Assembly (NCBI GenBank): GCA_001773215.1 | Contig: MEWB01000001.1 | Location: 478,479 to 542,478 of the forward strand | Source: a candidate division WWE3 bacterium RIFOXYC1_FULL_40_10 | GTDB taxonomy: Bacteria; Patescibacteriota; WWE3; UBA101185; UBA10185 | DNA length: 64,000 nt | Reading direction: 5' to 3' | Part shown: positions 67 to 23,678 of the stretch, one piece after another | How the letters are laid out: every line of letters begins with the position of its first letter | How positions within the stretch are numbered: the stretch's first letter is position 1 | Notes under the pieces: generated by a model | Databases searched by the model: none | Told to the model about the DNA's origin: nothing | What the model saw: the letters and a program-made list of their open reading frames with translations, nothing else | Made by a program: the position numbers and the translations under genes

Positions 67-2496
67 TTAGTATTTAATACCCACCCATTCCAAAATAGTC
101 TGCCAAAAGGCTTTTTTGCCTTGAGTTATATTCTCACTCACCTCTTGGGTGCTTATTCCCTCAACTGTTGGTTGAATAATCTGTGGTTTTATTTCTTCTG
201 TAGTGTTAACTGCAATTTCAACAGCTTGAGTTGAAGGATCTATTGTAAGTGTAAATTCTATCTTTTCTTCTCCTGATTCAATCTTCACATTGCTTTTACC
301 TGTAAGAAATTCGTGGGTGTACTCCCAGTGATTTGAGTAAGGGGTGACCCTGCTAATTTCAGTCCCGTTCACCGTAATTACCACGGTATCTTCTGAGTTT
401 CCAATCAACCTCACCAAGTTCTCAGTGTAAAAATAGTTCTTGTATATAGAAAAGTCGGGTACGAATGTTCCTATCTGCGTAATTTCCAGATCAGGTGTGG
501 TATTAACTTTTATTGTTTGTTTAAAGGTATCAGAAACATTCCCTGCTTCATCCTTAAATCTAATGTAAAAGTTCTTTTTTCCATCGTAATCAAATCCAAG
601 TTTTACATCACCATCATAGTCTCTCCATCTAGCATCCTTAAAATCTTCATTTTGAGCTAGCATAATGTATTTAACTCCCGTCGTTGAATCTCTAGTATCA
701 AAATATAATTTGAACTCCCTGCTAGGTGAATTAATTGTGCTAGACCCTATCTCCTTTAGGCTTGATTTACTTAATCCAATTAATTGACCATTTTCTCCAG
801 GTGCATCTTTGTCTAAAATAAAACCTTTATTTAAAAATAGGTTTGATGGCATGTAAACATCATTTTGATCATAAGATCTTATGTATACAGATCTGTCTCC
901 TTCTTCAAGAGAAGAAATATCGCAGGAAAACTCCTCAGTAGATTCGTCGAAGGCACCATTAGCTGAGGTACAAGCCGTCCATGTTCCTGGAGTGGCACTT
1001 GAGGTGCTCCACTCAACCCCTTTAATTGTATATCCGGATTCTCCTGATATAGCAGTACCCTCAAGATCCGTGTTACTTGCAGTTCCGGAAACTTCTATAG
1101 TAGGATTCCCATGAGAAATCTCGTACATATTAATAATACTTGCTCCCGAACCTCCAGAAGCACCCCCGCCTTGTACAATAGCAACGTCCTTCCAGCCGTC
1201 AGCATCAAGATCTCCTGTTTCAATCATATTTCCAAAAGCTGTATTCCCACTGGTTTTAATAATTGAAATCCAAGCTGAGGTTGTATCTAATCCGGATGCC
1301 GAATTTTTATAAACATAAAACTTGCCGTGCCTGCTGCCTGATGCCGCAGTTGTTTGATAAGCACCCACCAATAGTTCCGGATAGCCATCATTGTTTAAGT
1401 CTTCGATATGGACAGCCCTGCCATAGCTGTCGTATGCTGTACTACCGTTAAGAGTAATATTTGCTGTTGAAAAATTGTAGGAGCTGGAAAATGTTTCTCT
1501 CCCATACCAACAAAATACCCGGCCGGCTGACGTACTAATATTGTAAGCACCACCACAATAATCGTCCTTGCCATCATTATTTAAATCTCCAATACCATGG
1601 GAATAACTTCGCCCAAAATAATCTGCACCTGCAGTAGTAGTAAAATCCACCTCACTAAAGGTACCATCTCCATTACTAAGCAACATGAAAACATCCTTAC
1701 CAATATAGCCCGTGTAAAAGTAATTATCCCCGCTAAGAATATCGTCGTAACCATCGCCGTTGAAATCTCCAGACTTGATGCCGTTATAATAAGCTCCAAA
1801 TCTAACATTACTTAAGGTAGTTTGTGCCCAAGGATCGTTAAAATCGTAAGACCCATTATTATTTTGATATACAAATATAGAGATGGTATTAAAATCACTA
1901 TTAGGAATTGACGAAACAGCAATATCACTATCCCCATCTCCGTCATAATCCCCTGATCCAACTCCGTAACCGAAATATTTCCTATCGGTGGAATTACCTA
2001 TTATTCTTAAATCTGCCGAAGCCGCCGAAGTATTACTCGTAAATTGCTTATTATAAAAAGCGTATAGCATTCCGGTCCCGGTAGAATAATTCCACCCTGT
2101 AGTTAATAGATCTATTTTATTATCATTGGTAATATCTTCAAGAATAATCGGATCATTTAACGAATCTCCGAAATAATCGTTAGCGACCTCACCTGTGAAA
2201 GTAGCATCGTTAGTGTTATCAAAAGAAGCTCCTCCATAATAGACATAAACTCTTCCTGCAAAGCTTCCATAAGAATAGTAACTTGCCGCCACATCATCGT
2301 AACCATCACCATTTATATCACCAATGGAGGTAGGAAGTCCAAAGAATGTACCACCATTGGTAATTGTACCCACCTGTGTTAGTGACGCCGCACCACTAGA
2401 ATTAATGCGAAATAAAAACACTACCAAAACTAAAAAAATAACCCTACTTAAATATCTCACACCTTTATTCTCACATTTTACTGAAAGATATTCCAT
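67..2496 (-). CDS. Large secreted/surface protein with FG-GAP (integrin-alpha-like) beta-propeller repeats plus the shared C-terminal module and WQTILEWVGIKY tail
   Basis: 809-aa ORF. Hydrophobic N-terminal signal/anchor. Repeated DxNxDGxxD (DINGDGYDDV-type) Ca-binding FG-GAP motifs. ~180-aa module with a Cys pair and the YIRFKDEAGNVSD motif, shared with the 5755..7908 and 7944..10433 proteins (and partly with the NHL protein). Pro/Gln-rich linker, then a conserved C-terminal tail. Confidence 0.75.
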   Translation of the reverse strand: MEYLSVKCENKGVRYLSRVIFLVLVVFLFRINSSGAASLTQVGTITNGGTFFGLPTSIGDINGDGYDDVAASYYSYGSFAGRVYVYYGGASFDNTNDATFTGEVANDYFGDSLNDPIILEDITNDNKIDLLTTGWNYSTGTGMLYAFYNKQFTSNTSAASADLRIIGNSTDRKYFGYGVGSGDYDGDGDSDIAVSSIPNSDFNTISIFVYQNNNGSYDFNDPWAQTTLSNVRFGAYYNGIKSGDFNGDGYDDILSGDNYFYTGYIGKDVFMLLSNGDGTFSEVDFTTTAGADYFGRSYSHGIGDLNNDGKDDYCGGAYNISTSAGRVFCWYGRETFSSSYNFSTANITLNGSTAYDSYGRAVHIEDLNNDGYPELLVGAYQTTAASGSRHGKFYVYKNSASGLDTTSAWISIIKTSGNTAFGNMIETGDLDADGWKDVAIVQGGGASGGSGASIINMYEISHGNPTIEVSGTASNTDLEGTAISGESGYTIKGVEWSTSSATPGTWTACTSANGAFDESTEEFSCDISSLEEGDRSVYIRSYDQNDVYMPSNLFLNKGFILDKDAPGENGQLIGLSKSSLKEIGSSTINSPSREFKLYFDTRDSTTGVKYIMLAQNEDFKDARWRDYDGDVKLGFDYDGKKNFYIRFKDEAGNVSDTFKQTIKVNTTPDLEITQIGTFVPDFSIYKNYFYTENLVRLIGNSEDTVVITVNGTEISRVTPYSNHWEYTHEFLTGKSNVKIESGEEKIEFTLTIDPSTQAVEIAVNTTEEIKPQIIQPTVEGISTQEVSENITQGKKAFWQTILEWVGIKY

Positions 2497-2516
2497 AATC
2501 TTAGTTAATGAGTTGG

Positions 2517-5500
2517 TTATAGTTTCAAATCCCTGCCGATTCTGCCGAAGGCTTTTTTAATTGGTATGGTTGAGGATATAAAACTTTTTATCACACCCAA
2601 GGCCGGCTGAGAGTCGACTCTAATTTGGTAATTTCCCTTTTCTACTAAAAAGTTATATCTCCCTTTGTAATCCGCTACACTAACTTGGCCTCTAAATTCC
2701 GGCGCTACGCTGTTTACTAATCTAACAATACAACCCGGAACAAATTTACCGGCATGATTTTTTATCACTCCCCAGCTTTTTACATAAGCCTCTAGAGTCC
2801 GATATATAAATAACAACAAGAATATTATAGAAATAAAGATGTTTGTTGGAGTAGGGCTTTTGGTTATCACTACGATACTCCACACTAAGCCGGCATAGTA
2901 GGCGATTGTTGTGACAAAGGCAAATACCGGATTCGTACCACCTATACCTCTCCTAATTTTCTCCAATTGATTCCAATTGCTAGCCAAAGCATCCATAGGA
3001 ATATTTAGATCCAACTTGCCGGATGTTGGTACAACAACCTCCGTTGCTGTTAAAATGTCAGAATATACAGGTTCTACCAATTGACTTGTAATTTTAGCCG
3101 AAGGAAATAGATAGGATGTCTTTCTCGCCGAAATTGTGTAAGTTCCAGGCTCAACTAAAAACTGATATCTGCCATACATATCTGTTACGGTTTGTATCAC
3201 TTTCCCTGCAGCAGATGTTAGTGTAAGAACGACCGGATCTAAAGGTTGTTTATTTTTTGAATCATAAACCACTCCCCACGGGTGATCTTTCTTCCTAAAG
3301 AACCCCGAAATTAGCGAGGGAAGAGCCCATGGATTTATGTAAGGTATGGTGCTTAACGAACTTAATAGTCCGGTAAATAAAAGTGGAGATACTGATAGTG
3401 CCGCCGTGCTAATACCTACGCCAAGCGAAGTGAAAAATCCCACCAGCTTCTCCGCGCTCAAAGCCAAAATATTCCCCATAGGTTTACCTATATGAGGCTT
3501 AGGTTGCTGTACGTCACCTTTTGGAAATATTTCTACAGGAGGTTCTGTCACTTCAACCTCTATTCTGGGCAGCTCGGGGACAATGACTAATGCGGGAACA
3601 GAATCCCCTGTGTAATTTATCCCTCGGGATATTTTATCGCTAACATTGCCTTTAGTGTCTTTAAATCTAACGTACACAGTGTAACCGGCAAGTACATCAG
3701 GAAGCTTATAGTCTTTTGTGGTGCGATAACTTTCCCAAGATGCTTCCGACAAATCACTCTTCGTTGATATCTTCATTTGCTCCACCTTGGCAACATCCCC
3801 GCTTGCTCTTAAATAAAGCCTGATATAAGGCGACTTAGTAGTAGTTGCAGAACTTCCGTCTATTGTCCCATCCGATGAGTTTATTACTAATTTTCCCTTG
3901 CTAAAGTTGTCGTCCTCATCATCTTCATCCTCTTCGTCATCGTCTCCACCAGACACCGCCGGATATTCATAGTACAAAATCCTATTGTTAAAAGTATCAA
4001 CTACATAGATATTACCTGATGAGGTTATAGCTGTTGCATAGGGATAATTGAATTGACTGGTGGAACTGCCAAGTGCTCCCCACCCGGCTAGGTAGGTACC
4101 CGAGAGTGTGAACTTTTTGATCATATGATTATAGGTATCGGTCACGTATACGTAGGATCCGTAGACATCTACATCCTGGGGTTCATCCATCCCTCCGCTA
4201 TGATCCCACTGAGATATATAAACTCCACCTGCAGTGAATTTCTGAATTCTGTTATTGTACGTATCTGCTACATAAATGTGTCCATATCCATCCATTCCAA
4301 GATTGTAAGGAGTGTCCAGCTGCCCATCCCCGGAACCTGACTCCCCAAACTTATTCACATACACACCCGCTGTTGTGAATTCCTGGACTCGATTATTGTT
4401 GCTGTCTGACACATACACTCTCCCTGTGGGTGAGACTACTATTCCTATAGGGCCGTTAAATTGACCGTTCCCTGCCCCACTACTACCCCACTGGGATAGA
4501 TAGTTTCCGCTCGTATCAAAAACCTGAACCCTATCGTTCGACATATCCGTAACGAAAATTTTATTATCGTAGAAAAAGCACCCCTGGGGATATGAAAACT
4601 GCCCATCACCGGATCCTTCACTCCCCCACGTACTAATAAAGTTTCCGGCACCATCGAACTTTTGAACTCGGTGGGTCTCACCGTCTGACACATAAAGTGT
4701 GTCATTGCCATCCAAACAGGCTCCTGCAGGATTATAGAACTCACCGTTTTCGCCTCCCATTAACCCCCATTTATAAACGAAGCCTCCTGCCAATGTGAAT
4801 TTGGTTACTCTATTAATTGTATTATCAACCATGTATAAGTATCCGCCGTTTAATACAATCGAATAGGCCGATTCGTGATCACCATTAGAGTTTCCCAAGG
4901 TACCCCACTTACTTTGGTACACACCGCTTGAGTTAAATTTCTGCACCCGGGCACCACCCTCGGAAATATAAATGTTGTCATCTTCGTCAACTGCAACCCC
5001 TAACGAGTATACAAGCTCTCCATCACCTGTACCGTATGATCCTATAGACAACTCGTGAACTCCACTACTTGTAAACCTTTGAACCCTACTATTCGAATAA
5101 TCGGAAACGTATATTTTATCGTCAGAGTCGATAGCCATTCTCCCCGGTGAGCTAAATTGCCCATTCCCCGAGCCTGTAGTACCCCATTTTGCGCTATAAT
5201 CCCCATCTGGTTCAAATTTCATTACTCTGTTCAGCACTATATCTGTGACATATACATAACCTGCTGAATCAACTACAACATCTCCCGGTGAAGAAAACTG
5301 GCCATCCCCTGTCCCAGCCGATCCAAATGTCATTTCATAGACAAGAGAAGAGCTGTATTTTTCAACTCTTTTGTTTGTAGTATCTACCACATACAACTTG
5401 TCTGAGGAATCCAAAAAAAGGCCGTGGGGAAAATTAAATTTCCCGTGTGTTGCCCCTTGGCTACCGAACGTAGTTATTGTTTGATCCGATGTAATCTTTA

Positions 5501-5726
5501 CTAGCCTGTGATTGCTGGCGTCGGAAATAAATATGTTTCCGTCGGAGTCGAAAACGATATCTCTCGGAGCGTACAAGTATACTTGAGTGGTGTTGGGAAT
5601 AGAACTTGGTGTCGTCCTCTCATAAGCAGGCAAGTCACTATCCGCTGCAAATGCGAGAGAACTAAAAAAAGATGCAATCAATCCGAATAGCAAAAAACGC
5701 TTAGGGCACATGATAAAAGTATACAT
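2517..5726 (-). CDS. Giant NHL-repeat beta-propeller surface protein with acidic linker, shared module, hydrophobic (multi-TM?) region and two carboxypeptidase-regulatory-like (CarbopepD_reg/Cna-B-type) domains
   Basis: 1069-aa ORF. Signal peptide. About 12 NHL-like repeats (YVxDxxNxRVxKF pattern). DDDEEDEDDEDD run. Module with YVRFKDTKGNVSD. KPMGNILAL segment followed by hydrophobic stretches. Two GxYxF/YQI beta-sandwich-like segments flanking further TM helices. Confidence 0.7.
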   Translation of the reverse strand: MYTFIMCPKRFLLFGLIASFFSSLAFAADSDLPAYERTTPSSIPNTTQVYLYAPRDIVFDSDGNIFISDASNHRLVKITSDQTITTFGSQGATHGKFNFPHGLFLDSSDKLYVVDTTNKRVEKYSSSLVYEMTFGSAGTGDGQFSSPGDVVVDSAGYVYVTDIVLNRVMKFEPDGDYSAKWGTTGSGNGQFSSPGRMAIDSDDKIYVSDYSNSRVQRFTSSGVHELSIGSYGTGDGELVYSLGVAVDEDDNIYISEGGARVQKFNSSGVYQSKWGTLGNSNGDHESAYSIVLNGGYLYMVDNTINRVTKFTLAGGFVYKWGLMGGENGEFYNPAGACLDGNDTLYVSDGETHRVQKFDGAGNFISTWGSEGSGDGQFSYPQGCFFYDNKIFVTDMSNDRVQVFDTSGNYLSQWGSSGAGNGQFNGPIGIVVSPTGRVYVSDSNNNRVQEFTTAGVYVNKFGESGSGDGQLDTPYNLGMDGYGHIYVADTYNNRIQKFTAGGVYISQWDHSGGMDEPQDVDVYGSYVYVTDTYNHMIKKFTLSGTYLAGWGALGSSTSQFNYPYATAITSSGNIYVVDTFNNRILYYEYPAVSGGDDDEEDEDDEDDNFSKGKLVINSSDGTIDGSSATTTKSPYIRLYLRASGDVAKVEQMKISTKSDLSEASWESYRTTKDYKLPDVLAGYTVYVRFKDTKGNVSDKISRGINYTGDSVPALVIVPELPRIEVEVTEPPVEIFPKGDVQQPKPHIGKPMGNILALSAEKLVGFFTSLGVGISTAALSVSPLLFTGLLSSLSTIPYINPWALPSLISGFFRKKDHPWGVVYDSKNKQPLDPVVLTLTSAAGKVIQTVTDMYGRYQFLVEPGTYTISARKTSYLFPSAKITSQLVEPVYSDILTATEVVVPTSGKLDLNIPMDALASNWNQLEKIRRGIGGTNPVFAFVTTIAYYAGLVWSIVVITKSPTPTNIFISIIFLLLFIYRTLEAYVKSWGVIKNHAGKFVPGCIVRLVNSVAPEFRGQVSVADYKGRYNFLVEKGNYQIRVDSQPALGVIKSFISSTIPIKKAFGRIGRDLKL

Positions 5727-5754
5727 GGGGGGTAGAACCTTGCAAGGGAAAATA

Positions 5755-7908
5755 CTAGTAATTTATCCCAAACCACCCAAGGATATTCTGCCACAAGGAT
5801 TTCCTTAGTGGTTTTGTTTCCTCAACAACCGGTACCTGTATTCCCTGAGCCTGAGGCTGCACCTCCAAAGGCTGAATCTCCTCTATTGGGGCAGTTACTT
5901 GAATCTGCTCCACAGGTTGGATCACCTCCTCAACCAGCACCGGCGGGGTTGGCTCTATCGCGAGTTTTGTATTTACCTCGATGATTTGCTTAAAAGTATG
6001 GCTAACATTTCCTGCCTCATCTTTTAACCTGATGTATAAATTCTTTTTCCCATCATAATCGAACCCTAACTGAATATCCCCATCGTATTCTTTCCACTTC
6101 GCATTCTTGAAATCCTTGTTTTGGGAAACCTTTATATACTCAACTTTCGTTGTGGAATCGCGAGTATCAAAATATAACTTGAAAGATCTCTCATCAGCTT
6201 CTAGAGTTTTTGTGCCTATCTCAATTAAGTTATTTCTGGACAATCCAACCAACTGATTGTTCTCTCCCGGACCCTCTTTATCTAACGTAAAATCCTTGTG
6301 AGTAAATAAACTTTCCGGCATATAAATATCATTTTGGTCGAACGATCTTAGGAATATCCCATTTTCCCCCTCATTAAACGAGGACACGTCGCATGAAAAT
6401 TCCTCGGTGGATTCGTCGAAGGTTCCATCAGATGGAATACAAGCTACCCATACCCCCGGTACCGCACTTGATGTACTCCATTCTACCCCCTTTACAGAGT
6501 ATCCGGGCTCACCGGAAACAGCAGTACCTTCTAGTCCTACATTACTGGCAGTGCCTGATACAGTAAGAGTAGGATTACCGTGTGATAACTCATAGATGTT
6601 TGCCTGGGACACTCCAGTTGCGCTTGCGGCTCCACCTGCCTGAGTAACTGCAATGTCCATCCAGTCATCATTGTCAATATCCCCTGCAGTTACATAAGCG
6701 CCAAAGGCAGTGTTTCCACTAGTCTTTATTTCCGATAACCAAGCCGATGATATGTCTAACTCTCCGACTTCGTTCTTATAAATAAAAAGCTTACCGTGCC
6801 GACTCCCACCAGCTTTGCTTGCTTGGTAGGCACCTACCATTAATTCTGGATAGCCATCGTTAGTAACATCTCGAATGTCGATGCTCCTTCCGAAATTATC
6901 ATTAGCACCTACGCCATCAGCTGCTCCACTGATAGTCAAGTCGGCAGTTGCATTTGTATAAGAAGCTGAGAAACTTGCTCTACCGTACCAACACAATACG
7001 CGCCCTGTACTACCAGAGTAACCATATGCCCCTACACAAAAATCGTCTTTTCCGTCGGAATTTAAATCACCAACGGCTTCGGTGAAACCACGGCCAAAGT
7101 TATCTTCCGCGGCGGCGGCCACAAAGTCCACTTCACTAAAATTCCCGGCCCCATCACTCAAAAGCAACACACCGTCTTTTCCCGAAGCACCAGCGAAAAA
7201 ATCGAAAACTAGGATGTCGTCGTTTCCATCACCGTTAAAATCCCCCGAAAGCATACCTCCATACCCCTCCGATGAACCCCCTGTGATGCTTATTGTCGCC
7301 CAAGGTGCGGCAAAATTAAAAGTGTCACTCGAATTCTGATAAACACGTATTTTATTAATTCCCCCAGTAGCCCAGGATAACACTGCAATATCCCTTCCAC
7401 CCGCACCATCGAAATTACCCGAGGTAGACGCCGGTCCGGTCCATTTCATATCTGTCGCATTTCCCACTTTACTTAAATCAGCAGTTGAAGCAGAGATATT
7501 TCCGGAAAAATCATCCCCATAGAAAGTATAAAATTTTCCATAATTAGTGTTATATGCATAGGCACCTGTGAGAATGTCCTTTTTACCATCACTATTAACG
7601 TCCCCCAATGAAAAACCGCCAAATTCAAAATAGGCCATATATGTTGTCGCCTCATCAATGAATGTTGCGTCTACCACATTATTAAAAGCAGCTCCCCCAT
7701 AATAAACGTAAATTCTGCCAATAGATTCAGGCGCATATCCTACGAGAACATCATCGTAACCATCTCCGTTAATATCATCAATTTTTACAGGGAATCCAAA
7801 ATAATTAGAACTATTTGAAAGTGTGCTCATTGTTGTTAGAGTAGGAGCCGCGTAAACCGTTCCAGTAATCATTATGAGCAGAAATAACGATAACAGTTTT
7901 TTATTCAC
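5755..7908 (-). CDS. Large surface protein with FG-GAP beta-propeller repeats, shared C-terminal module and WQNILGWFGINY tail (GTG start in ORF track; alternative ATG at codon 13)
   Basis: 717-aa ORF with signal peptide and DINGDGYDDV/DFNGDGNDD motifs. Module roughly 70% identical by eye to that of 67..2496. Pro/Gln/Val-rich linker. Conserved C-terminus. Confidence 0.75.
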   Translation of the reverse strand: MNKKLLSLFLLIMITGTVYAAPTLTTMSTLSNSSNYFGFPVKIDDINGDGYDDVLVGYAPESIGRIYVYYGGAAFNNVVDATFIDEATTYMAYFEFGGFSLGDVNSDGKKDILTGAYAYNTNYGKFYTFYGDDFSGNISASTADLSKVGNATDMKWTGPASTSGNFDGAGGRDIAVLSWATGGINKIRVYQNSSDTFNFAAPWATISITGGSSEGYGGMLSGDFNGDGNDDILVFDFFAGASGKDGVLLLSDGAGNFSEVDFVAAAAEDNFGRGFTEAVGDLNSDGKDDFCVGAYGYSGSTGRVLCWYGRASFSASYTNATADLTISGAADGVGANDNFGRSIDIRDVTNDGYPELMVGAYQASKAGGSRHGKLFIYKNEVGELDISSAWLSEIKTSGNTAFGAYVTAGDIDNDDWMDIAVTQAGGAASATGVSQANIYELSHGNPTLTVSGTASNVGLEGTAVSGEPGYSVKGVEWSTSSAVPGVWVACIPSDGTFDESTEEFSCDVSSFNEGENGIFLRSFDQNDIYMPESLFTHKDFTLDKEGPGENNQLVGLSRNNLIEIGTKTLEADERSFKLYFDTRDSTTKVEYIKVSQNKDFKNAKWKEYDGDIQLGFDYDGKKNLYIRLKDEAGNVSHTFKQIIEVNTKLAIEPTPPVLVEEVIQPVEQIQVTAPIEEIQPLEVQPQAQGIQVPVVEETKPLRKSLWQNILGWFGINY

Positions 7909-7943
7909 ACAATTAGTTTAACAAAAAATTCCAATTAGCAATA

Positions 7944-10433
7944 CTAGTAACTAATCCCAAACCACCCGAGAATATTCTGCCACAAGGGTTTTTTAGTGGG
8001 TATAAAGTTTGATTGTAAACTTTTTACTTGTGGGCGTGGCTCGATTATTTGCTGTGGCGCAGCAGGTTTTAGCTCAGCTTCACTGCTCGACGAAGTTTCC
8101 CGTCCTAAAACAGCTCTCAAACCATCGGGAAAGCTAATTCCTGCGGGATCTATAATAAGCATGAATTCAACTGAAGACTTATTACTCATGCTGTCAGTGC
8201 TTACTATTTTGATCTTGTGGTCTCCATTTGGGAAACTCAAGTCGGTAAACTTCCACTTTCCCTCGGCATTCAAATCCTTAAGCTCCTTCACCAGCTTGTC
8301 ATTAATGTACAACTTCAAATCTGCTTTTTCTTCCGAAGTTCCTTCAATGGTAAGGGCATTCTCAGTATAGAAATACCTTTTGAACTTCGATAAATCAGCA
8401 TCAATAAACCCTATCTTTTCGATATTAAGTATGGGGGCGTGAGTATCAATCTTCACAGTTTGTTCTAAAACATCCGAAATATTCCCAGCTTCGTCTTTAA
8501 ACTTAATATACAGATGCTTAGTACCATCCCTTTCAAAGCTCATATTCACATTCCCGTCATAATTTTTCCAATTTGCACCTTCAAAGTCCTTACTTTGAGA
8601 CATCATAATTTGATCTACAGATGTTGTTGCGTCGGAAGTATCAAAATATAATTTAAAATCTCTATCACGCATTTTTAAAACGCGAGAACCTATACTCTTT
8701 TTGTTTTCCTCACTCCCTACCCAAATCCTTTGACTATCTGTTGACGATGAGGGGGCAGTTACATCCAGATCAAAGGTCGCATATGAATAATTAGATGAAT
8801 AGGAACAAGATCCAAACTGATCACAAGAGCGCACGTATATTTCTGCAGATCCGTCGGAAACGGGAGATATATCACATGTGAAATCTTCTGCTAATGAATT
8901 GTATGTTCCATCATCTGCAGTACATGCAGTCCAGGTACCCCCGCTATTTGTGGTATTCCAGGACACACTCCCAATGGTCGTTGTGGATTTTGGAGCAGCT
9001 ACACTCCCTGTAACAACAGCACTATTGGTTAAAGAAGGCATTTCATCAAGAGTAATTGTATGTGGGTAATCAAGTACCACCATTAACATCATGTCATAAT
9101 AAGAACTGGAGGTGGCATAAGTGTAACCCGTTAGGGCAAACACTCCATCACCTGACGCAGCCAACCCATAGAGCACATCATCACCGGCATAAGTATTCAA
9201 GGGATAATATACATAACCTACACCATTAAACGTGGTATCCAGAACTCCTGTCGGTGTCAATCGTATAATTCCAAAATCGGCGGTTGTATAAACACGTTTC
9301 ATGTGACCACCGGCAATAATACGCCCAAACTCATCTTCATAAATTGCTGAATACCCCCACATAGCATCATTTAGGTTACCTTTATTAGAAAAATTATTGT
9401 AATAGATGCCGGTTCCGTTAAAGGTTGTATCTAAACTACCGTCTAATTTGTAACGCCAAACTACAAAATCCTGATTACCTGCGGCATTCGTACTATAACC
9501 TCCCAGTAATATTTTACCGTCTCTTTGGACATAAATGGAATACGCATAATCGGAGCTATTAGTACCTCCGGCAACATTGGCCGTCACTGCGTAACCTGTG
9601 GAACTAAAAGTGGTATCCAAAGTTCCATCGGTATTAAATCTCCAAACCACAGCGTCGAAATTACCCAAGGAGTTAGTACTTTCACCGGCGACAACATACT
9701 TCCCATCTGATTGTAGTGCCAAGCCAAAACCGTAATCGTTTGTTGTTCCTCCTGCAGCACCGCCGTGAGTAACATAGCCGACCGAATTGAATGAAGTGTC
9801 CAAACTACCGTTAGAGTTGTACCGCCAAAGTGCCATATCCTGGTTACCAGCTCCTGCTCCACTTGCCCCAGCCACCACAATCTTCCCATCTGATTGCACA
9901 ACTACACTATAGCCAGTATCCCCAACATTTCCCCCGGCAGCATTGTTGTGTGTTGCGTACCCCGTTGAGTTAAATGTAGTATCCAAAGTTCCATCGGTAT
10001 TATATCTAAGTAGTATCATGTCGAGATTCGTCGTTAAGGAACCTCCACATACTACGTACTTTCCATCCGCTTGGATAGCCAACCCATTGCCTATGTCACT
10101 GCCATTGCTGGAGCCGTTAAAAGTTACATAACCTACAGAGTTAAACGAAGTGTCAAGAAGACCATTTGTGTTATATCTCCAGAGCGTACTATCATAATTA
10201 TTAGTCAGGGATTTGCTGAAACCTGTAACTAAATATTTGCCATCCGGCAGAATAAGTACTTTGTATCCCAAGTCGTAGTTATTCCCTCCCGCTGCACTAT
10301 TATGTGACGTATAACCAACACTATTAAAGTCGGTATCGAGATTAATTGTTGCTGCCTGGGCAAATATTTGAAAAACAGCAACTAGTGCTAACAAGGGAAC
10401 TAACTTAAGACAGGATTTCAGATAATCTTTCAC
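7944..10433 (-). CDS. Large surface protein with delta-60-type beta-propeller repeats (LDTSFNSVGY...GG...DGK motif repeated ~7x), shared module and WQNILGWFGISY tail
   Basis: 829-aa ORF. Signal peptide. Repeated RYNxDGxLDTTFNxxGY units resembling the delta-60 repeat family. Module with KLYFDTSDATT / YIKFKDEAGNISD. Same C-terminal tail. Only 19 nt downstream of ftsZ. Confidence 0.7.
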   Translation of the reverse strand: MKDYLKSCLKLVPLLALVAVFQIFAQAATINLDTDFNSVGYTSHNSAAGGNNYDLGYKVLILPDGKYLVTGFSKSLTNNYDSTLWRYNTNGLLDTSFNSVGYVTFNGSSNGSDIGNGLAIQADGKYVVCGGSLTTNLDMILLRYNTDGTLDTTFNSTGYATHNNAAGGNVGDTGYSVVVQSDGKIVVAGASGAGAGNQDMALWRYNSNGSLDTSFNSVGYVTHGGAAGGTTNDYGFGLALQSDGKYVVAGESTNSLGNFDAVVWRFNTDGTLDTTFSSTGYAVTANVAGGTNSSDYAYSIYVQRDGKILLGGYSTNAAGNQDFVVWRYKLDGSLDTTFNGTGIYYNNFSNKGNLNDAMWGYSAIYEDEFGRIIAGGHMKRVYTTADFGIIRLTPTGVLDTTFNGVGYVYYPLNTYAGDDVLYGLAASGDGVFALTGYTYATSSSYYDMMLMVVLDYPHTITLDEMPSLTNSAVVTGSVAAPKSTTTIGSVSWNTTNSGGTWTACTADDGTYNSLAEDFTCDISPVSDGSAEIYVRSCDQFGSCSYSSNYSYATFDLDVTAPSSSTDSQRIWVGSEENKKSIGSRVLKMRDRDFKLYFDTSDATTSVDQIMMSQSKDFEGANWKNYDGNVNMSFERDGTKHLYIKFKDEAGNISDVLEQTVKIDTHAPILNIEKIGFIDADLSKFKRYFYTENALTIEGTSEEKADLKLYINDKLVKELKDLNAEGKWKFTDLSFPNGDHKIKIVSTDSMSNKSSVEFMLIIDPAGISFPDGLRAVLGRETSSSSEAELKPAAPQQIIEPRPQVKSLQSNFIPTKKPLWQNILGWFGISY

Positions 10434-10452
10434 ATAATAATACTAGCAGATC

Positions 10453-11640
10453 TTACCTCCCCCGCAAGAAAGCAGGGATATCATATTTGTCATCGAAGTC
10501 ACCGTCAAAGTCCTCGGGTTTAAAGACATTTTTTGGAGGTACATGCTTGTGGATTGGCTCTACAGGAACCGCGGGTTTAGTCACTCCTTGAGTCTGAGCA
10601 TTTTTTAACACCTCATCAACCGCGAAACTTTTTGGCCTTGTGGGAGCTGAAAACCCAAAATCATCTTTTCCACCCTCATAAGCATCAAAACCGGTAGCTA
10701 TGACTGTAATTTTCACTTGCCCGTCTAAACGGCGATCAATGCTTGTACCAAATATAATGTTTGCATCCTGCCGGGCGATATCTCGAATTATATTAGCGGC
10801 TTTATCCACCTCTTTCATCGACAAATCTATTCCGCCCACAATATTGAAAAGTATGCCAGTGGCACCTTCAATAGACTGCTCAATTAAAGGAGACGAAATA
10901 GCATCTCGGGCGGCTTTTTCGGCTCTATTTTCACCGGTGCCAATACCAATTCCCATAAGTGCGGTGCCGGCTCCCTTCATAATCGTTTTTACATCGGCAA
11001 AATCCACATTTATCAATCCCGGCATAACAATTAAATCCGAAATACCCTGAACCCCCTGGTTTAAAATACTATCCGACATTTTAAACGCCTCCATAATTGA
11101 AGTGTTTTCGTCGGAAATTTCCAAAAGCTTTTGATTAGGTATAGTTATTAGCGCATCAACCTGAGTTTTAAGTTCGGAAATACCTTTTTGAGCATTGGTT
11201 TTTCTTTGGGCACCTTCAAATTCAAAAGGCTTTGTCACAACACCTATTGTTAGTGCACCCAACTCCCTTGCAATAGACGCGACTACAGGGGAAGCTCCGG
11301 TTCCGGTTCCCCCACCCATTCCTGCAGTAATAAAAACCATGTCGGCACCTTCTAAATTTTCTTTAATAAGATCCGTGGATTCCTCCGCGGCTGCTCGGCC
11401 AACTTCTGGATTGGCTCCTGCACCCAAACCATTAGTAAGTTTTTGGCCAATTGGAATTTTAACGACTGATTTATTAATAGAAAGATCTTGCGCGTCAGTA
11501 TTAATTGCCACATATTCAACACCGGATATTTGATCCGATTCTATCATTGAGTTGATGACATTACCGCCGGCTCCGCCTACACCAACGACTTTAATTCGAG
11601 CAAAACGCTCTATTTCAGGTTTTACTAGCATATAGTTCAA
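10453..11640 (-). CDS. ftsZ: Cell division GTPase FtsZ
   Basis: GGGTGTG tubulin signature (GMGGGTGTGASPVVA) and typical N-terminal VGVGGAGGN. The ORF-track start is TTG; an in-frame ATG lies at 11631. Confidence 0.95.
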   Translation of the reverse strand: MNYMLVKPEIERFARIKVVGVGGAGGNVINSMIESDQISGVEYVAINTDAQDLSINKSVVKIPIGQKLTNGLGAGANPEVGRAAAEESTDLIKENLEGADMVFITAGMGGGTGTGASPVVASIARELGALTIGVVTKPFEFEGAQRKTNAQKGISELKTQVDALITIPNQKLLEISDENTSIMEAFKMSDSILNQGVQGISDLIVMPGLINVDFADVKTIMKGAGTALMGIGIGTGENRAEKAARDAISSPLIEQSIEGATGILFNIVGGIDLSMKEVDKAANIIRDIARQDANIIFGTSIDRRLDGQVKITVIATGFDAYEGGKDDFGFSAPTRPKSFAVDEVLKNAQTQGVTKPAVPVEPIHKHVPPKNVFKPEDFDGDFDDKYDIPAFLRGR

Positions 11641-11687
11641 ATAGTATATATGAAACTACAAGTGGTGGATACTGTAATATCTATATA

Positions 11688-12947
11688 TTAGGGCAGAAAC
11701 GATCTAAGTTTATCAAAAATCCCTCCCATTTTCTTCTTCATATCACCTCGTCGAGCATTCATTGATAGCAAGTCCGTGCCACGATAAAGCTTGGCTCCGT
11801 ATAAAACAGCACCTACACAAGAAGCTGAATCGGGACCTTGGATCTCATCTATTAATCCTGTTACTCCTCTAGGAGAGCCTATTCTTACAGGCATCTTTAA
11901 GTTGGTTTTTGCGCATTTTTCCATCCCTACTGTTGAGGCAGCTCCACCGGTTAAAATGATACCCGCGGGTAGTTTCCCTGCCAAATTAGCCTTTGTTAGT
12001 TCAAGGCTTAACAATCTAAAAATCTCCTCGAGTCTGGCATCTATTATTTTATTAAGCATATTTCTGGGTACAGCATCAATTTCCAAACCAAATTCGGTTA
12101 AGTCGAAATCTTCGTCTTTTCTAAGTTCCACGGATGATTTGGATATCAAGGCTTCGTTGCCAAGCCTTATTTTAATTTTCTCCGCATCTTCCATTCGAGA
12201 TCTAAGGCCTATTGCCAAATCCGATGTAATATATTTACCTCCAATGGGCAAAACCACCGAATGCACAGGGCTACCATCGATAAAAGCAATAACTGAGGTA
12301 GTTCCTCCTCCTATATCTACCAACAAAGCCCCAAGCTCCTTTTCGGTATCTGTTAAAACTGCCTCTCCGGATGCAATTCCTGTATAAACCAACTCTTCAA
12401 CATCAATATCTACCTGGTTTACACATCTGATAATATTTTTAACTGCTGTGGAAGAACCGTGGATGATATTAGTTTCAACCTCAAGCCTAATACCAGACAT
12501 ACCTACAGGGTCTTTAATACCATCCTGAGAATTGACTATAAAATCGCGGGGAATGACATGAATTATGTCTCTGGTGGTCGGCAGCGAAACAGCCTGGGCG
12601 GCTTCAATTACTCGGGCAACATCATCCTTTGCAATTTCGGAATCTACATTGTTCGGTGAAACGGCAACCACCCCATGTGAATTTAGATTTTCGATATGGC
12701 TACCATTTACAGTTACAAACGCCTTTGATACAGAAACTCCTGCCATTCTTTCAGCTTTTTCTATACTAGCTGATATCGCCTCTACGACCCCATCTATGTC
12801 GACAACATTTCCTTTATTAATGCCCTTCGAAGGTATGTTTCCGGACACCCCTACAACTGAAATTCGCTCTTCGGAAACTGCAGCTATTGTAGTTGCGACT
12901 TTTGTGGATCCTATATCAATTCCGGTAATTATTTTTTCTTTGGGCAT
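11688..12947 (-). CDS. ftsA: Cell division protein FtsA (actin-like ATPase)
   Basis: N-terminal IITGIDIGSTKV actin-fold phosphate-1 motif. Position between ftsQ and ftsZ. Confidence 0.9.
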   Translation of the reverse strand: MPKEKIITGIDIGSTKVATTIAAVSEERISVVGVSGNIPSKGINKGNVVDIDGVVEAISASIEKAERMAGVSVSKAFVTVNGSHIENLNSHGVVAVSPNNVDSEIAKDDVARVIEAAQAVSLPTTRDIIHVIPRDFIVNSQDGIKDPVGMSGIRLEVETNIIHGSSTAVKNIIRCVNQVDIDVEELVYTGIASGEAVLTDTEKELGALLVDIGGGTTSVIAFIDGSPVHSVVLPIGGKYITSDLAIGLRSRMEDAEKIKIRLGNEALISKSSVELRKDEDFDLTEFGLEIDAVPRNMLNKIIDARLEEIFRLLSLELTKANLAGKLPAGIILTGGAASTVGMEKCAKTNLKMPVRIGSPRGVTGLIDEIQGPDSASCVGAVLYGAKLYRGTDLLSMNARRGDMKKKMGGIFDKLRSFLP

Positions 12948-12953
12948 AAGTTG

Positions 12954-13793
12954 CTAATCGTATAATACTATTACTTTATCATAACGTAAATCAATCATAC
13001 TAACTTTCTTCCCCTGTGTCTTTAATTCGTTAACAAAAGCCGCTAGTACAGCAAAGGATTTTCTTATTTCCTTTAGATTTGATATGTACGTTTTAATACC
13101 TAATACATATAGTTCGGTGAAATTATCGTGGTAACTCATACTAGTGACTTTAATCTGGTGTTCCGAGGCAGAGCTAATAATCTCTTTTGCAACTGGAACT
13201 ATCCTATTATTTACAAAATACCCCACATCTATCTGCCCTGAGTACTCTATTTTTGTAAGACTCTGCGCCTCATCTGAACTCTTATCAACCAAGCCCAGTA
13301 CATAGCCTTCGGAATCAATTAAATATTCCTGTTCCAAGTTTTCGCTGCGGGTAACAACGGCCAATGGTTTCCTTTCGTCAACTTTAACTTCAACAGTTCT
13401 CGGATACACTTTTTTTAGTCTTATATCCGCCGCACCCAGAAAGTTCTGGTCCAAATTAGGTAAAATTTTAGCAAGATTTAGGAATAGTAAGTTTTTGCCT
13501 GATACGTTATAGGCCACAACGTTATGTAAGTCGCTTTGATTCACATACTTCCCCGCTCCCCTTACTATAACGCTGTCCACAGAAAAGTGGTTTGATCTAA
13601 ACAGAAAAAAATAAACGATATATATCATGCTGACAGTTGTAATTACCAATAAGGCTAGCTTTATAAAGTGTTTAGCTTTAAACCAGCCAAATTTAAAGCT
13701 CTTTGTGAACCTTTTTTTTTCCAAGGGATTAACAAAGTATAAAAAGCGCTTCGGCTTAGTTACCTTTTGTTTGCTTAATAATTTCATCTGCAA
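12954..13793 (-). CDS. ftsQ: Cell division protein FtsQ/DivIB (N-terminal TM + POTRA domain)
   Basis: Single TM followed by a POTRA-like segment (VxVxGxxxxSxxxL ... PxTVxVxVxERKP). Synteny murG-ftsQ-ftsA. Confidence 0.75.
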   Translation of the reverse strand: MQMKLLSKQKVTKPKRFLYFVNPLEKKRFTKSFKFGWFKAKHFIKLALLVITTVSMIYIVYFFLFRSNHFSVDSVIVRGAGKYVNQSDLHNVVAYNVSGKNLLFLNLAKILPNLDQNFLGAADIRLKKVYPRTVEVKVDERKPLAVVTRSENLEQEYLIDSEGYVLGLVDKSSDEAQSLTKIEYSGQIDVGYFVNNRIVPVAKEIISSASEHQIKVTSMSYHDNFTELYVLGIKTYISNLKEIRKSFAVLAAFVNELKTQGKKVSMIDLRYDKVIVLYD

Positions 13794-21144: not shown

Positions 21145-22854
21145 ATGAAAGCCAGACAATATCTTTATTTTGTATTCTCGGTAATATTGCTAAGTCATAT
21201 ACAAGTTGCGGCGTTTGAGGCTCAGTTCGCAACCGAATATCTGGTTGATTTCAGCATCCAACAAAACGGCGAAACCCAGGTTAACCAGCAAATTAACATA
21301 ACCAACCTAAAAGACGATGTAATCGCAACTAGCTATAGCTTTACCATAAAGTACTTCGAAATATTCGACGTAAGTGCCCAAGCTAACGGTAACAAGGCAA
21401 CTCCCAAAGTTGAGACTTCCGGAAACGAAACTACCATAGTTGTAAATATTGACGACTACGTAATAGGCAAAGGCAGACAAAACAAAATCGAGTTAACATA
21501 TAAGACACTGGATATAGCAACTAAGGTGGGTGAGGTGTGGAACATTAATATCCCAAAAACCCAGCTTAACAATGATACTTCCTCATATAACGTAACACTT
21601 GAGGTTAAGGAGTCATTGGGACCGAAAATATTCATCTCTCCTGTGCCCGACACCGAAAAATCCTCAGATGGAAACCATGTTTTTAATTTCACAAAAGAGT
21701 CGCTACGCAATACCGGAATTTCCGCATCCTTTGGAAGCTATCAAGTATTAAATTTTAAATTGAAATATCAAATTTCCAACCCTAACTATTTTTATGCAAA
21801 CTATGAGGTTGCACTTCCCCCGGACATTAAGATGCTACAGCAAGTTAAATACAGCACCATTACTCCATCCCCAAATAGCATAAAACTGGATGAAGATGGA
21901 AATGCTATTGCTACCTTTAGACTTAAACCAAAGCAGAAACTTCAAATTGAGTTAAATGGGGCAGCACGCTTAACAGGTAGGCAAATAAATCCGGCTTTCG
22001 GAGGTAAATTTGAATCCTTACCAAATACTTTGATTGAAAAGTATACAAAAGCTCAAAAATATTGGGAATCTGACTCAAAAGAAATAAAAGCAATTAGTAA
22101 CAAAATTATAGATACCAACCTTAATGTAAGCCAGAACGCTCAAAAAGCATACGATTACGTTACTGAAACATTATCCTATAACTTTGATGCACTAAAGGAA
22201 AACTTCATCGAAAGGGAAGGAGCGGTTGCCGCGGCGAACAATAAAAAACCTTTCACATGTATGGAATTTACGGACCTATTTGTAGCACTTGCCCGATCAA
22301 TGGGGATCCCTGCCCGGGAAATTAATGGATACGCTATTAACTCGGGAGAAACCACCAAACCTGTGTCGATTCAATTAAAGAATGGGGATTTGCTCCATTC
22401 GTGGGCTGAGTACTATGATCCTTTTTACGGTTGGGTACAGGTTGATCCAACTTGGGGAAATACATCCGGCATTGATTACTTCACCAAGTTAGATACTAAT
22501 CATCTCGCATTTGTAGTTAAAGGTATAGATTCTGAATATCCCTACCCGGCAGGCAGTTATAGGTTCAGCGATGAAGGCAAGTTAGTTGAGGTCGACTATG
22601 CACTTCAGGGCAGTCAAACACCGTTTGATACTTCACTTGAATTTAAGAAGTCGTTAAGCCTAAATTTAATCAAAATTATAAACGGAAACCAAAAGTACGA
22701 GGTTGAGAATTCTGGTGAGACTTTTGTATACGATATAGATAAAACCGGGCTAAATTTAGCTCCCAAACAAAAAGCCACAATCTGGATAAATAATACTGTG
22801 AAAGGGGTAAGTTATAAGGATTATGAGGATAAGGAATCTTTCTGGCCGTTATAA
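21145..22854 (+). CDS. Secreted transglutaminase-like (Cys-protease fold) domain protein
   Basis: Signal peptide. Core motif KPFTCMEFTDLFVALARSMGIPAREINGYA (TGase-like Cys). Downstream HSWAEYY/D and WVQVDPTW (His/Asp of the triad). Confidence 0.6.
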   Translation: MKARQYLYFVFSVILLSHIQVAAFEAQFATEYLVDFSIQQNGETQVNQQINITNLKDDVIATSYSFTIKYFEIFDVSAQANGNKATPKVETSGNETTIVVNIDDYVIGKGRQNKIELTYKTLDIATKVGEVWNINIPKTQLNNDTSSYNVTLEVKESLGPKIFISPVPDTEKSSDGNHVFNFTKESLRNTGISASFGSYQVLNFKLKYQISNPNYFYANYEVALPPDIKMLQQVKYSTITPSPNSIKLDEDGNAIATFRLKPKQKLQIELNGAARLTGRQINPAFGGKFESLPNTLIEKYTKAQKYWESDSKEIKAISNKIIDTNLNVSQNAQKAYDYVTETLSYNFDALKENFIEREGAVAAANNKKPFTCMEFTDLFVALARSMGIPAREINGYAINSGETTKPVSIQLKNGDLLHSWAEYYDPFYGWVQVDPTWGNTSGIDYFTKLDTNHLAFVVKGIDSEYPYPAGSYRFSDEGKLVEVDYALQGSQTPFDTSLEFKKSLSLNLIKIINGNQKYEVENSGETFVYDIDKTGLNLAPKQKATIWINNTVKGVSYKDYEDKESFWPL

Positions 22855-22897: not shown

Positions 22898-23287
22898 CTA
22901 GCGTCCACGCATTCGAGCAAGTGCCCGAGTAACATAAGATGCCGCCCGGCTCTGAACTTTCTGGAATTTCCGTTTATCCTCCCCATCCAGACCCAGTTCA
23001 AGACTCATAAGAACAGAGGCCAAGGAGTCCGGCGCATTCGACCACCCACGGGAAACAAAGGGTTCGAACTTCAACACCTTCACAGTAACTGTGACCTGAG
23101 TCCGATCCGAGTTAACTTCGCAGGACAGCACTTGGAATTGGCCAACACCGGTTCTGATCACAAACCCATGCTTAGCGGCAGGCTTGTAATGACCCAGAAT
23201 TTTTCCCAAAGATTCACCTTGGAAGATTACCCAATCCAGCTGATAACCCGTTTCGCTATTGATCAGTTCAACAAGGGCATTTTCCAT
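22898..23287 (-). CDS. Hypothetical protein (130 aa) in a ~52% GC islet
   Basis: The minus frame has protein-like composition (MENALVELINSETGYQLDWVIFQG...). The overlapping + ORF 22823..23296 is Arg-rich junk. Lies 19 nt downstream of 23307..23678. Confidence 0.5.
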   Translation of the reverse strand: MENALVELINSETGYQLDWVIFQGESLGKILGHYKPAAKHGFVIRTGVGQFQVLSCEVNSDRTQVTVTVKVLKFEPFVSRGWSNAPDSLASVLMSLELGLDGEDKRKFQKVQSRAASYVTRALARMRGR

Positions 23288-23306
23288 TTTTTCTAACCGC
23301 CTTTTT

Positions 23307-23678
23307 TTACCGAACTGGTTTTCCGCGCCCAAGGTCGGGGTTTGCCGGTGCGACTGAGAGGGGCTTAACATTCAGAACAACAACATAGTATTTCGAGGGA
23401 ATTTCAACAAAATCAGCCCCGCCCGAAGATACGCATTCTTCTACCTGTCCCGGCTCAAACACGTCGGCATGATCGTACTCTCGAATATAGGTGCTTTGCG
23501 GGGGTTTGAACTGTGTCCCTGGCATCAGCACCCCGTCAAAAAAGGCCTGGGCAATTTTTCCCACTTCGAGTGATTCAGGGGAGTGAAACAGAGTCGGCAA
23601 ACCATCCCTTCTTCCCTGCCTATCCCGCTCCTGCACCAACAATACGGTATTCTTTTCAGTCATTTCAGATACTGGCAT
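23307..23678 (-). CDS. Hypothetical protein (~124 aa) in the GC-rich islet, sharing motifs with the small GC-rich protein family
   Basis: Start chosen at MPVSEMTEKN (GGAGG 5 nt upstream). GLPTLFHSPESLEVG and IPSKYYVVVLNV resemble the motifs of 49046..49288 and 49302..49526. Confidence 0.5.
   Translation of the reverse strand: MPVSEMTEKNTVLLVQERDRQGRRDGLPTLFHSPESLEVGKIAQAFFDGVLMPGTQFKPPQSTYIREYDHADVFEPGQVEECVSSGGADFVEIPSKYYVVVLNVKPLSVAPANPDLGRGKPVR

Follow-up and report, generated by a model that had tools for sequence, protein, structure and literature searches.

Three of the four consecutive genes that follow ftsZ in a genome of the WWE3 lineage of the candidate phyla radiation (CPR, or Patescibacteria) end in almost the same tryptophan-rich peptide of 13 residues, the tail, which is a real, strictly C-terminal and selected element. 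The genes, here called G1 to G4, lie in a stretch of 64,000 nucleotides (the window; contig MEWB01000001.1, positions 478,479 to 542,478) of a metagenome-assembled genome of about 0.9 Mb from the Rifle aquifer. In the products of G1, G2 and G4 a propeller is followed by a stalk of immunoglobulin (Ig)-like domains, a spacer that is predicted to be disordered, and the tail. We propose, with a probability of about 0.45, that the tail is a Trp-rich interfacial helix, flanked by Lys-Lys, by which adhesin-like proteins exported through Sec are tethered on the membrane's outer face. CPR bacteria make up much of the diversity of bacteria, and their way of life appears to be one of attachment to other cells. 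To our knowledge, hardly anything has been reported on the way in which they display their attachment proteins, and the tail, real, selected and so far unannotated, may explain such display in minimal cells, within a narrow distribution. That six genes of 700-1070 aa in a genome of about 0.9 Mb are given to proteins with propeller, stalk and tail suggests a surface-display device that annotation pipelines have missed: the existing annotation of the four array proteins (RIFOXYC1_FULL_40_10, GCA_035290405.1) reads hypothetical, FG-GAP repeat or Bacterial Ig-like domain, and we found no description of the tail or of the family in the literature.

A conserved peptide at the C-terminus

The tails of G1, G2 and G4 read KKPLWQNILGWFGISY, KSLWQNILGWFGINY and KKAFWQTILEWVGIKY, and the stop codon follows each of them immediately, just as a preliminary description of this DNA had claimed for three nearly identical tails. 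On the minus strand of the window, the tail LWQNILGWFGISY of G1 occupies positions 7947-7985, with KKP before it and TAG after it; LWQNILGWFGINY of G2 occupies 5758-5796, between RKS and TAG; and FWQTILEWVGIKY of G4 occupies 70-108, between KKA and TAA. The consensus of the 13-residue peptide and its flank is [KR]K-x-[LF]WQ[NT]IL[GE]W[FV]GIxY, and the C-terminal peptide expected from trypsin or Lys-C cleavage after KK is PLWQNILGWFGISY. A degenerate DNA pattern for the tail and its stop codon matched the window three times, against 0.00 matches expected, and a profile made from eight tails gave its members 35-45 bits and everything else 7 bits or less.

A profile of the two-domain stalk module described below matched 5554 proteins among 1.84 billion cluster representatives. 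Clear versions of the tail were found in five of the top 150 of these matches: P0016 (ending in TLWQTVLGWLGIEY), P0020 (TFWQNILGWFGIKY), P0060 (PLWQTMLGWFGIKY), P0075 (LNTILKWFGVEM) and P0141 (FLQKILSYFGIKF). The first three are encoded in the same WWE3 genome as the window, P0016 at locus L007 (A3K34_01145; 581-2761, minus strand), P0060 at the same locus (A3K34_01115; 9230-11650, plus strand) and P0020 at locus L011 (A3K34_04240; 10001-13066, plus strand), and this genome therefore holds at least six paralogs with a strict tail, at four loci, in about 0.9 Mb. P0075 comes from a second genome, where the gene order pgk, tpi, lytR, holA, sortase, murJ, lepA is that of the WWE3 locus L011. Looser aromatic and amphipathic tails are present in four further proteins of the same top 150 (P0055, P0112, P0130 and P0010), standing in register with the tail in P0055 (LWSRLGGLFR), P0112 (IFQKILNFFK) and P0130 (MLSRFLSFLKLY). 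The motif drifts from genome to genome (LNTILKWFGVEM, FLQKILSYFGIKF, IFQKILNFFK), and in distant relatives only its physico-chemical pattern is retained, again in register. No genuine match to the strict DNA pattern occurred in 185,579 GTDB species genomes, a collection that evidently does not include the source species; the lone match, on a Jidaibacter contig, has an internal stop and was set aside as chance. In the JGI metagenomes the pattern occurred only on the tail proteins already known. Over the window, GTDB, JGI and the top 150 of the 5554 matches, all strict copies belong to one paralog family, and all six lie in one WWE3 genome. Both tail and module recur outside the window, and the tail is strictly C-terminal in every tail-bearing protein found, two points that the preliminary description had proposed to check.

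The tail is more conserved than the domains that precede it. G1 and G2 share 12 of the 13 tail residues, against 37% identity in the module, and the mean pairwise identity among the paralogs is 0.59 in the tail and 0.44-0.49 in the folded domains. Codon differences at the 13 tail codons of the six paralogs are synonymous in 68 cases and non-synonymous in 52, against 20 and 155, respectively, in the 13 codons directly upstream, and the Gly, Leu and Ile codons of the tail are scrambled among the paralogs. These codon counts indicate that the tail is under purifying selection at the level of the peptide. The preliminary description had regarded gene conversion or recombination as plausible, on an estimate of about 80% DNA identity between the two FG-GAP genes, G2 and G4. 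We measured 67% over 914 nt for this pair (47% at the protein level, over the full length), and between G1 and G2 only the last 57 nt attain 88%. The codon comparison rejects gene conversion as the cause of the tail similarity, because the amino acids are retained and the synonymous sites scrambled.

The tail is not a transmembrane (TM) segment, being too short and too polar. Its mean Kyte-Doolittle hydropathy is 0.4-0.6 over 13 residues, against at least 1.6 for the TM stretches of G3; over the last 19 residues the values are -0.3 to 0.03, and Lys-Lys lies upstream of the tail, with no terminal TM stretch and basic cluster. For the last 13 residues, the Wimley-White scale gives an interfacial free energy of -5.9 kcal/mol in G1 and G2 and -3.0 kcal/mol in G4. 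The same calculation gave -5.0 kcal/mol for the sequence taken here as the membrane anchor of penicillin-binding protein 5 (PBP5). Among 107 open reading frames (ORFs) of the window and related loci, the three tails are the most interface-philic C-termini, with the terminal TM helix of MraY as their sole equal. AlphaFold2 (AF2) predicts a helix over LWQNILGW in G2, at residues 264-271 of the modelled fragment, with a confidence score (pLDDT) of about 70. Treated as a helix, the first ten tail residues, which correspond roughly to the stretch modelled as helical by AF2, have a hydrophobic moment that ranks among the highest 1-4% of shuffles by the Eisenberg and Fauchere-Pliska scales and among the highest 7-10% by the Wimley-White scale, these ten residues having been picked after inspection. 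The strand-type hydrophobic moment (160-180 degrees) is low. The window also offers an internal comparison in the C-terminus of FtsA, KKKMGGIFDKLRSFLP (11688-11750, minus strand), which resembles the usual amphipathic membrane-targeting helix, on the cytoplasmic side.

At the position equivalent to the tail, other members of the family carry recognizable anchors. The homologs P0114, P0005 and P0148 end there in a TM helix followed by basic residues, and P0131 (LAETG) and P0135 (LAATG) carry sortase-type signals.

Heads, stalks and spacers of the array proteins

All four genes are read from the minus strand, and ORF calls and domain matches gave the following layout. G1 (7944-10433; 829 aa) encodes, in order, a signal peptide (AQA/A, the slash marking the putative cleavage site), a delta-60/DUF5122 propeller, two Ig-like domains, a Big_13 domain, the spacer and the tail. 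In G2 (5755-7908; 717 aa) an FG-GAP propeller is followed by two Ig-like domains, spacer and tail, and G4 (67-2496; 809 aa) has the same plan with a third Ig-like domain added; these three proteins are predicted to be exported. G3 (2517-5726; 1069 aa) is an NHL propeller protein without the tail. The ftsZ gene (10453-11640; 392 aa from the called start, which ends it at 11631) lies 19 nt upstream of G1, and the remaining gaps measure 35 nt (G1-G2), 28 nt (G2-G3) and 20 nt (G3-G4); no terminator-like hairpin was found in any of the four. The sizes and common direction of the genes, the short gaps of 19-35 nt and the position directly downstream of ftsZ without a terminator were therefore described correctly. 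The proteins had also been called giant, which is true in a relative sense only, as homologs with the same repeat domain reach about 6000 aa.

The propeller and stalk parts are members of known repeat families (FG-GAP, NHL, delta-60 and Big_13-like Ig). That the N-terminal propellers differ was confirmed by curated models, with matches above their curated cut-offs: the head of G1 matched TIGR02608 (9e-94, 307 bits), PF17164 (1e-64) and DUF5122 (215 bits), those of G2 and G4 matched FG-GAP (90 and 78 bits, several repeats each), and that of G3 matched NHL (187 bits), with CarboxypepD_reg matched in the same protein. A weak OmpL47-type match was also obtained among the array proteins. By eye, all four N-termini show a hydrophobic, signal-like stretch followed by AQA/A, VYA/A, AFA/A or SGA/A, and on inspection none of the four has a lipobox Cys.

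A module of about 200 aa with a conserved Cys pair is common to G1 (8439-9065), G2 (5959-6585) and G4 (496-1116), all on the minus strand; the copies in G1 and G4 were placed by alignment, that of G1 being 37% identical to that of G2 (E 1e-41), and the copy in G2 by its predicted fold, Foldseek and profile matches. The preliminary description had given a C-terminal module of about 180 aa to all four proteins, which holds for these three; G3 shares the second Ig-like domain only, at 21-28% identity over about 105-116 aa (E 3e-9 to 2e-6). Domain A of the module carries the Cys pair, which is real: C49 and C65 are invariant in 18 of 18 homologs. Domain B carries FKLYFDT...KDEAGNVS. A first AF2 run on the four window sequences alone reached a pLDDT of 46, was unusable, and was replaced by a run on G2 aa 442-717 with an alignment of 18 sequences (mean pLDDT 83.9). 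The prediction proposed for this module has thus yielded a confident, all-beta fold, with two Ig/FN3-like beta-sandwiches in the C-terminal half of G2 (pLDDT >90). In Foldseek searches against the PDB the matches were the CbhA Fn3-like domain, SiiE, RbmA, Bap, GhpA and SraP (E 4e-8 to 1e-4). Domains A and B of G2 fall below the Pfam thresholds, yet have this predicted Ig/FN3-like fold. The third Ig-like domain of G1 (aa 693-762) matches Big_13 at 32.2 bits, over a gathering cut-off of 27, and the same model matches the paralog P0060 (29.3 bits) and two homologs rich in repeats, P0010 and P0001. For domain B there is a match (1e-5) to the Siglec-like Ig domain of serine-rich adhesins from streptococci; this domain is widely repeated in tandem, as many as 36 times in one protein, in proteins of up to about 6000 aa. 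Because the Foldseek stalk matches agree with the Big_13, OmpL47-type and Siglec-like Ig matches, the module is, as modelled, an ordinary and very widespread adhesin stalk, and only the last 13 residues of these proteins are unusual. With 5554 profile matches and the Foldseek stalks, the module itself is not distinctive.

Between stalk and tail lies a spacer of 40-60 aa in G1, G2 and G4, rich in Pro, Gln and Glu, which cannot be aligned between paralogs. In G2 it covers 5797-5958 (minus strand; about 54 aa, also rich in Val) and is predicted to be disordered, pLDDT falling below 50 at residues 220-258 of the modelled fragment. The spacers of G2, of G1 (7986-8140, minus strand) and of G4 (109-230, minus strand), and those of homologs, share the short motifs EE[IVL][KQ]P and [QE]V[QE]G[IT], and in G1 and several homologs the third Ig-like domain terminates in ID[PS]xxxSFPxxL.

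After its propeller, G3 continues with an acidic linker and a single Ig-like domain (about aa 624-736), and it further has a polytopic membrane region and two CarboxypepD_reg-like domains. Its hydrophobic stretches, at about aa 757-800 and 936-981, have Kyte-Doolittle values of at least 1.6, and the two CarboxypepD_reg-like beta-sandwiches lie between hydrophobic stretches within aa 757-1069 (window 2517-3458, minus strand). An RKK follows the first hydrophobic block, and one or both sandwich domains could be cytoplasmic. The segment KPMGNILAL of G3, described earlier as related to the tail, was not detected by the tail profile. We take G3 to be a probable variant of the same design that would be anchored by real TM helices. 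No G3-like gene was found in the neighbourhoods of the other tail-bearing loci.

Genomic surroundings of the tail genes

The neighbours of the other tail copies are housekeeping genes unrelated to one another: an IS200-like transposase gene, holB, gyrB and the gene for the CCA enzyme; an ABC-2 transporter; lepA and groES; and gap and pgk. For the six paralogs of the WWE3 genome the neighbour sets are ftsZ/nrdR, the IS200 transposase with gyrB, the ABC-2 transporter, and lepA/groES. No gene is conserved as a neighbour of the six, and a partner protein encoded beside the tail genes, which the preliminary description had envisaged, did not emerge at these loci. A functional link between the tail family and ftsZ was considered and rejected, because the other paralogs lie in unrelated contexts and the adjacency is therefore incidental. 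The IS200-like transposase gene adjoins one of the three paralogs P0016, P0020 and P0060. The plus-strand gene of P0060 splits a minus-strand ABC-2 transporter (L007 7987-13228), standing between its ATPase gene and two ABC2_membrane_6 permease genes, and looks inserted into the ABC-2 operon. On another Rifle contig (L010 2903-3808, plus strand) a delta-60 repeat protein, cut by the contig end, follows directly after the tail-bearing P0141, so that tandem pairing of unlike propeller types recurs outside this genome.

The remaining content of the window comprises the division and cell-wall (dcw) cluster, a polysaccharide cluster, uvrABC, lexA, a two-component pair, and genes for glycolysis and for penicillin-binding proteins (PBPs); scans of the whole window for Rfam families and for tRNAs gave no matches. 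The dcw cluster is split, with mraW and an ftsI-like PBP gene at 43.3-46.3 kb and murA-mraY-ftsW-murG-ftsQ-ftsA-ftsZ at 10.4-18.4 kb. Between its halves (13000-46323) lie uvrC, uvrA, uvrB, a class A PBP, lexA, enolase, PPDK, phosphoglucomutase, and a histidine kinase with its response regulator. The window further encodes a 569-aa transglutaminase-core protein (21145-22854, plus strand) and two ORFs without a Pfam match (29516-30382, 288 aa, and 22898-23371, 157 aa, both minus strand). The polysaccharide cluster (51.5-64 kb) holds at least six GT4 glycosyltransferases, a flippase and a sugar transferase, adjoins a 655-aa DUF4012 protein (49587-51554, minus strand), and includes a 991-aa protein (57682-60657, minus strand) with O-antigen-ligase (Wzy_C) and PMT/PMT_2 protein-mannosyltransferase-like domains. 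This last protein might glycosylate envelope polymers or the Ser/Thr/Pro-rich spacers of surface proteins.

Readings of the tail and comparison with known systems

The proposed tether would work as follows. The array proteins would be exported by Sec with a cleavable signal peptide of the AxA type, the propeller serving as head, two or three Ig/FN3-like sandwiches as stalk, and 40-60 disordered residues as spacer. Once translocation is complete, the Lys-Lys-flanked peptide rich in Trp, Phe and Tyr would fold as a short amphipathic helix and rest at the interface of the cytoplasmic membrane, in its outer leaflet, where it would serve as a monotopic tether without covalent attachment, while the flexible spacer would let the propeller extend through the wall. 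The tail would in this way substitute for the TM-plus-basic anchors or LAxTG signals of the homologs. Computed support for the tether comes from the architecture, the fold class, the disorder of the spacer, the helix propensity, the interfacial hydrophobicity, the selection and the positional equivalence to anchors; signal-peptide cleavage, membrane binding and the adhesin role are what we infer from the sequences. The preliminary description had offered an anchoring or export signal, of which the anchoring part is plausible and the part of a general export or sorting signal is unsupported, as every strict copy found is on one family in one genome.

Several points weigh against the tether. With its 8-10 residues and a free carboxylate, the helix by itself would anchor weakly. 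Over the full 13 (or 14) residues the helical hydrophobic moment is no better than that of shuffles on any of the three scales, and the ten-residue amphipathic window was chosen after the helical wheel had been viewed. Conservation within the genome is tighter than generic membrane affinity needs, which points to a specific partner. Signal peptides were assigned by eye, the cellular location of the array proteins is read from sequence and prediction, and tails may also occur on unrelated proteins elsewhere in the genome.

The specific partner just mentioned is the core of the main rival explanation, which we hold possible, if rather unlikely: the tail would be a sequence-specific docking tag for an envelope component, for example a receptor in the membrane, part of an S-layer or pilus, or the polytopic C-terminal region of G3, and the family would be displayed by contact with protein and not with lipid. 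The greater conservation of the tail relative to the folded domains within one genome (12/13 against 37% for G1 and G2) and the selection acting on the peptide speak for it, as does the change of motif between genomes, which co-evolution with a partner would predict; the tight conservation and the variants peculiar to each genome suit a docking tag better than they suit generic lipid affinity. The array does contain in G3 a TM protein with the same stalk domain. The six paralogs, however, have no conserved neighbour gene, no G3-like gene stands beside the other copies, and two Trp, a Phe and a Tyr with flanking Lys-Lys are the typical composition of a peptide at a lipid interface.

It is doubtful, in a wider formulation, that WWE3 and its CPR relatives have in the tail a new lineage-specific signal for recognition or sorting, read by an unlinked envelope receptor or processing enzyme. 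If they had, the tail would be the mark of a regulon of host-attachment proteins, in organisms on whose surface biology very little has been reported.

That the tail is a new C-terminal sorting signal, read and possibly cleaved by a dedicated enzyme of the sortase, exosortase or rhombosortase kind, we consider improbable. Its strictly C-terminal place after a low-complexity spacer, on several different heads, is what such a signal would look like, and no known model accounts for it: the three C-termini of 41-42 aa had no NCBIfam match at E<=10, the whole proteins matched no sorting-signal model at E<=1, neither matched PEP-CTERM, GlyGly-CTERM, PGF-CTERM or the other curated CTERM models, and no LPXTG-like pentapeptide occurs in the last 60 aa of G1, G2 and G4. 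The preliminary statement that the tail is unlike the known signals therefore stands for NCBIfam and Pfam. A sortase gene also lies about 6 kb from two of the paralog loci. That gene, however, is one of a conserved block of housekeeping genes (pgk-tpi-lytR-holA-srt-murJ-lepA) and does not occur in the window, and the homologs that use sortase have plain LAxTG signals. Moreover, the tripartite design of motif, TM helix and basic cluster is lacking, the basic residues here preceding a 13-residue non-TM peptide, and the strict copies found are all on one paralog family of one genome. A motif recognized by an enzyme is expected to hold across genomes, so its drift in related genomes argues against an enzyme-read signal; no processing-enzyme gene was found at 13-64 kb of the window or beside the other tail copies, let alone as a conserved neighbour, and the earlier idea of a recognition tag for a processing enzyme has gained no support.

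A membrane-active tip that inserts into the membrane of a host bacterium, the proteins being released or held by an uncleaved signal anchor, is very unlikely. Two papers (PMC12206443, PMC11623550) describe cultivated Patescibacteria as obligate episymbionts, which would suit such a tip, as would the strongly interface-philic tail and the adhesin-like propeller heads and Ig stalks; against it, all the signal peptides have good AxA cleavage sites, the homologs anchor themselves by ordinary signals at the position of the tail, and nothing in the sequence data links the tail to host contact. Least credible of all is a functionless lineage-specific remnant, for instance the stump of a truncated TM anchor copied with the paralogs, which would fit the restriction of the strict motif to six paralogs of one species and the W..VL.W spacing that the TM helix of P0114 shares with the tail at its start, since synonymous sites are near saturation with the residues kept and the adjacent spacer diverged past alignment, diverged in-register tails persist in other genomes, and neither P0114 nor the KPMGNILAL segment of G3 scores against the tail profile, for which reason tail homology of both was rejected.

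Among known systems, sortase (LPXTG-type) signals resemble the tail in their C-terminal place, after a low-complexity, wall-spanning spacer on surface proteins with Ig stalks, and homologs of the same family have LAETG or LAATG at the equivalent place. The tail differs in that it lacks an LPXTG-like motif, a TM stretch and a basic cluster at the C-terminus, and in that basic residues come before the peptide. The C-terminal domain of the type IX secretion system (T9SS), a beta-sandwich of about 80-100 aa, is likewise different, as the Por_Secre_tail models gave no match to these proteins, in which 13 residues follow a disordered spacer. With the C-terminal beta-signal of outer membrane proteins the tail shares an aromatic last residue (Y; F in one relative) and, at -2 and -4, hydrophobic residues, but there is no barrel domain upstream, the strand-type moment is low and a helix is predicted; CPR bacteria are, as far as we know, generally regarded as having no outer membrane. 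The stalk is similar to those of Big_13 proteins, SiiE (BIg), Bap, RbmA and GhpA in the predicted fold of the module and in the Big_13 match of G1. It differs in that domains A and B of G2 and G4 are sub-threshold in Pfam, and from repeat-rich stalk adhesins in that only two or three copies lie between propeller and tail.

The tail falls outside all the sorting-signal families tested, and by analogy it would work most like a C-terminal anchor of the PBP5 type. In E. coli, an amphipathic helix of 18 residues at the C-terminus attaches PBP5 to the inner membrane, at its outer face, and PBP5 needs this attachment for its function (PMC2909392). With the anchors of PBP5 (DacA), PBP6 and DacD the array proteins would share Sec export with a cleavable signal peptide, here recognized by inspection, and a short, non-TM C-terminal peptide as presumed tether, of similar interfacial energy (-5.9 against -5.0 kcal/mol, the latter for the sequence taken as the PBP5 anchor). 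The tail is shorter (13 aa, with a helix of 8-10 residues), richer in Trp and ends in GIxY; it follows a long disordered spacer on an adhesin-like protein and not an enzyme, and the two have no sequence similarity. If the tail is a partner-specific tag, it provides a handle for finding that partner. If it is a monotopic anchor, it provides a rule for spotting surface proteins of CPR bacteria, namely a disordered spacer, Lys-Lys and a short aromatic amphipathic C-terminus, and tethering of the PBP5 type would extend to adhesin-like proteins.

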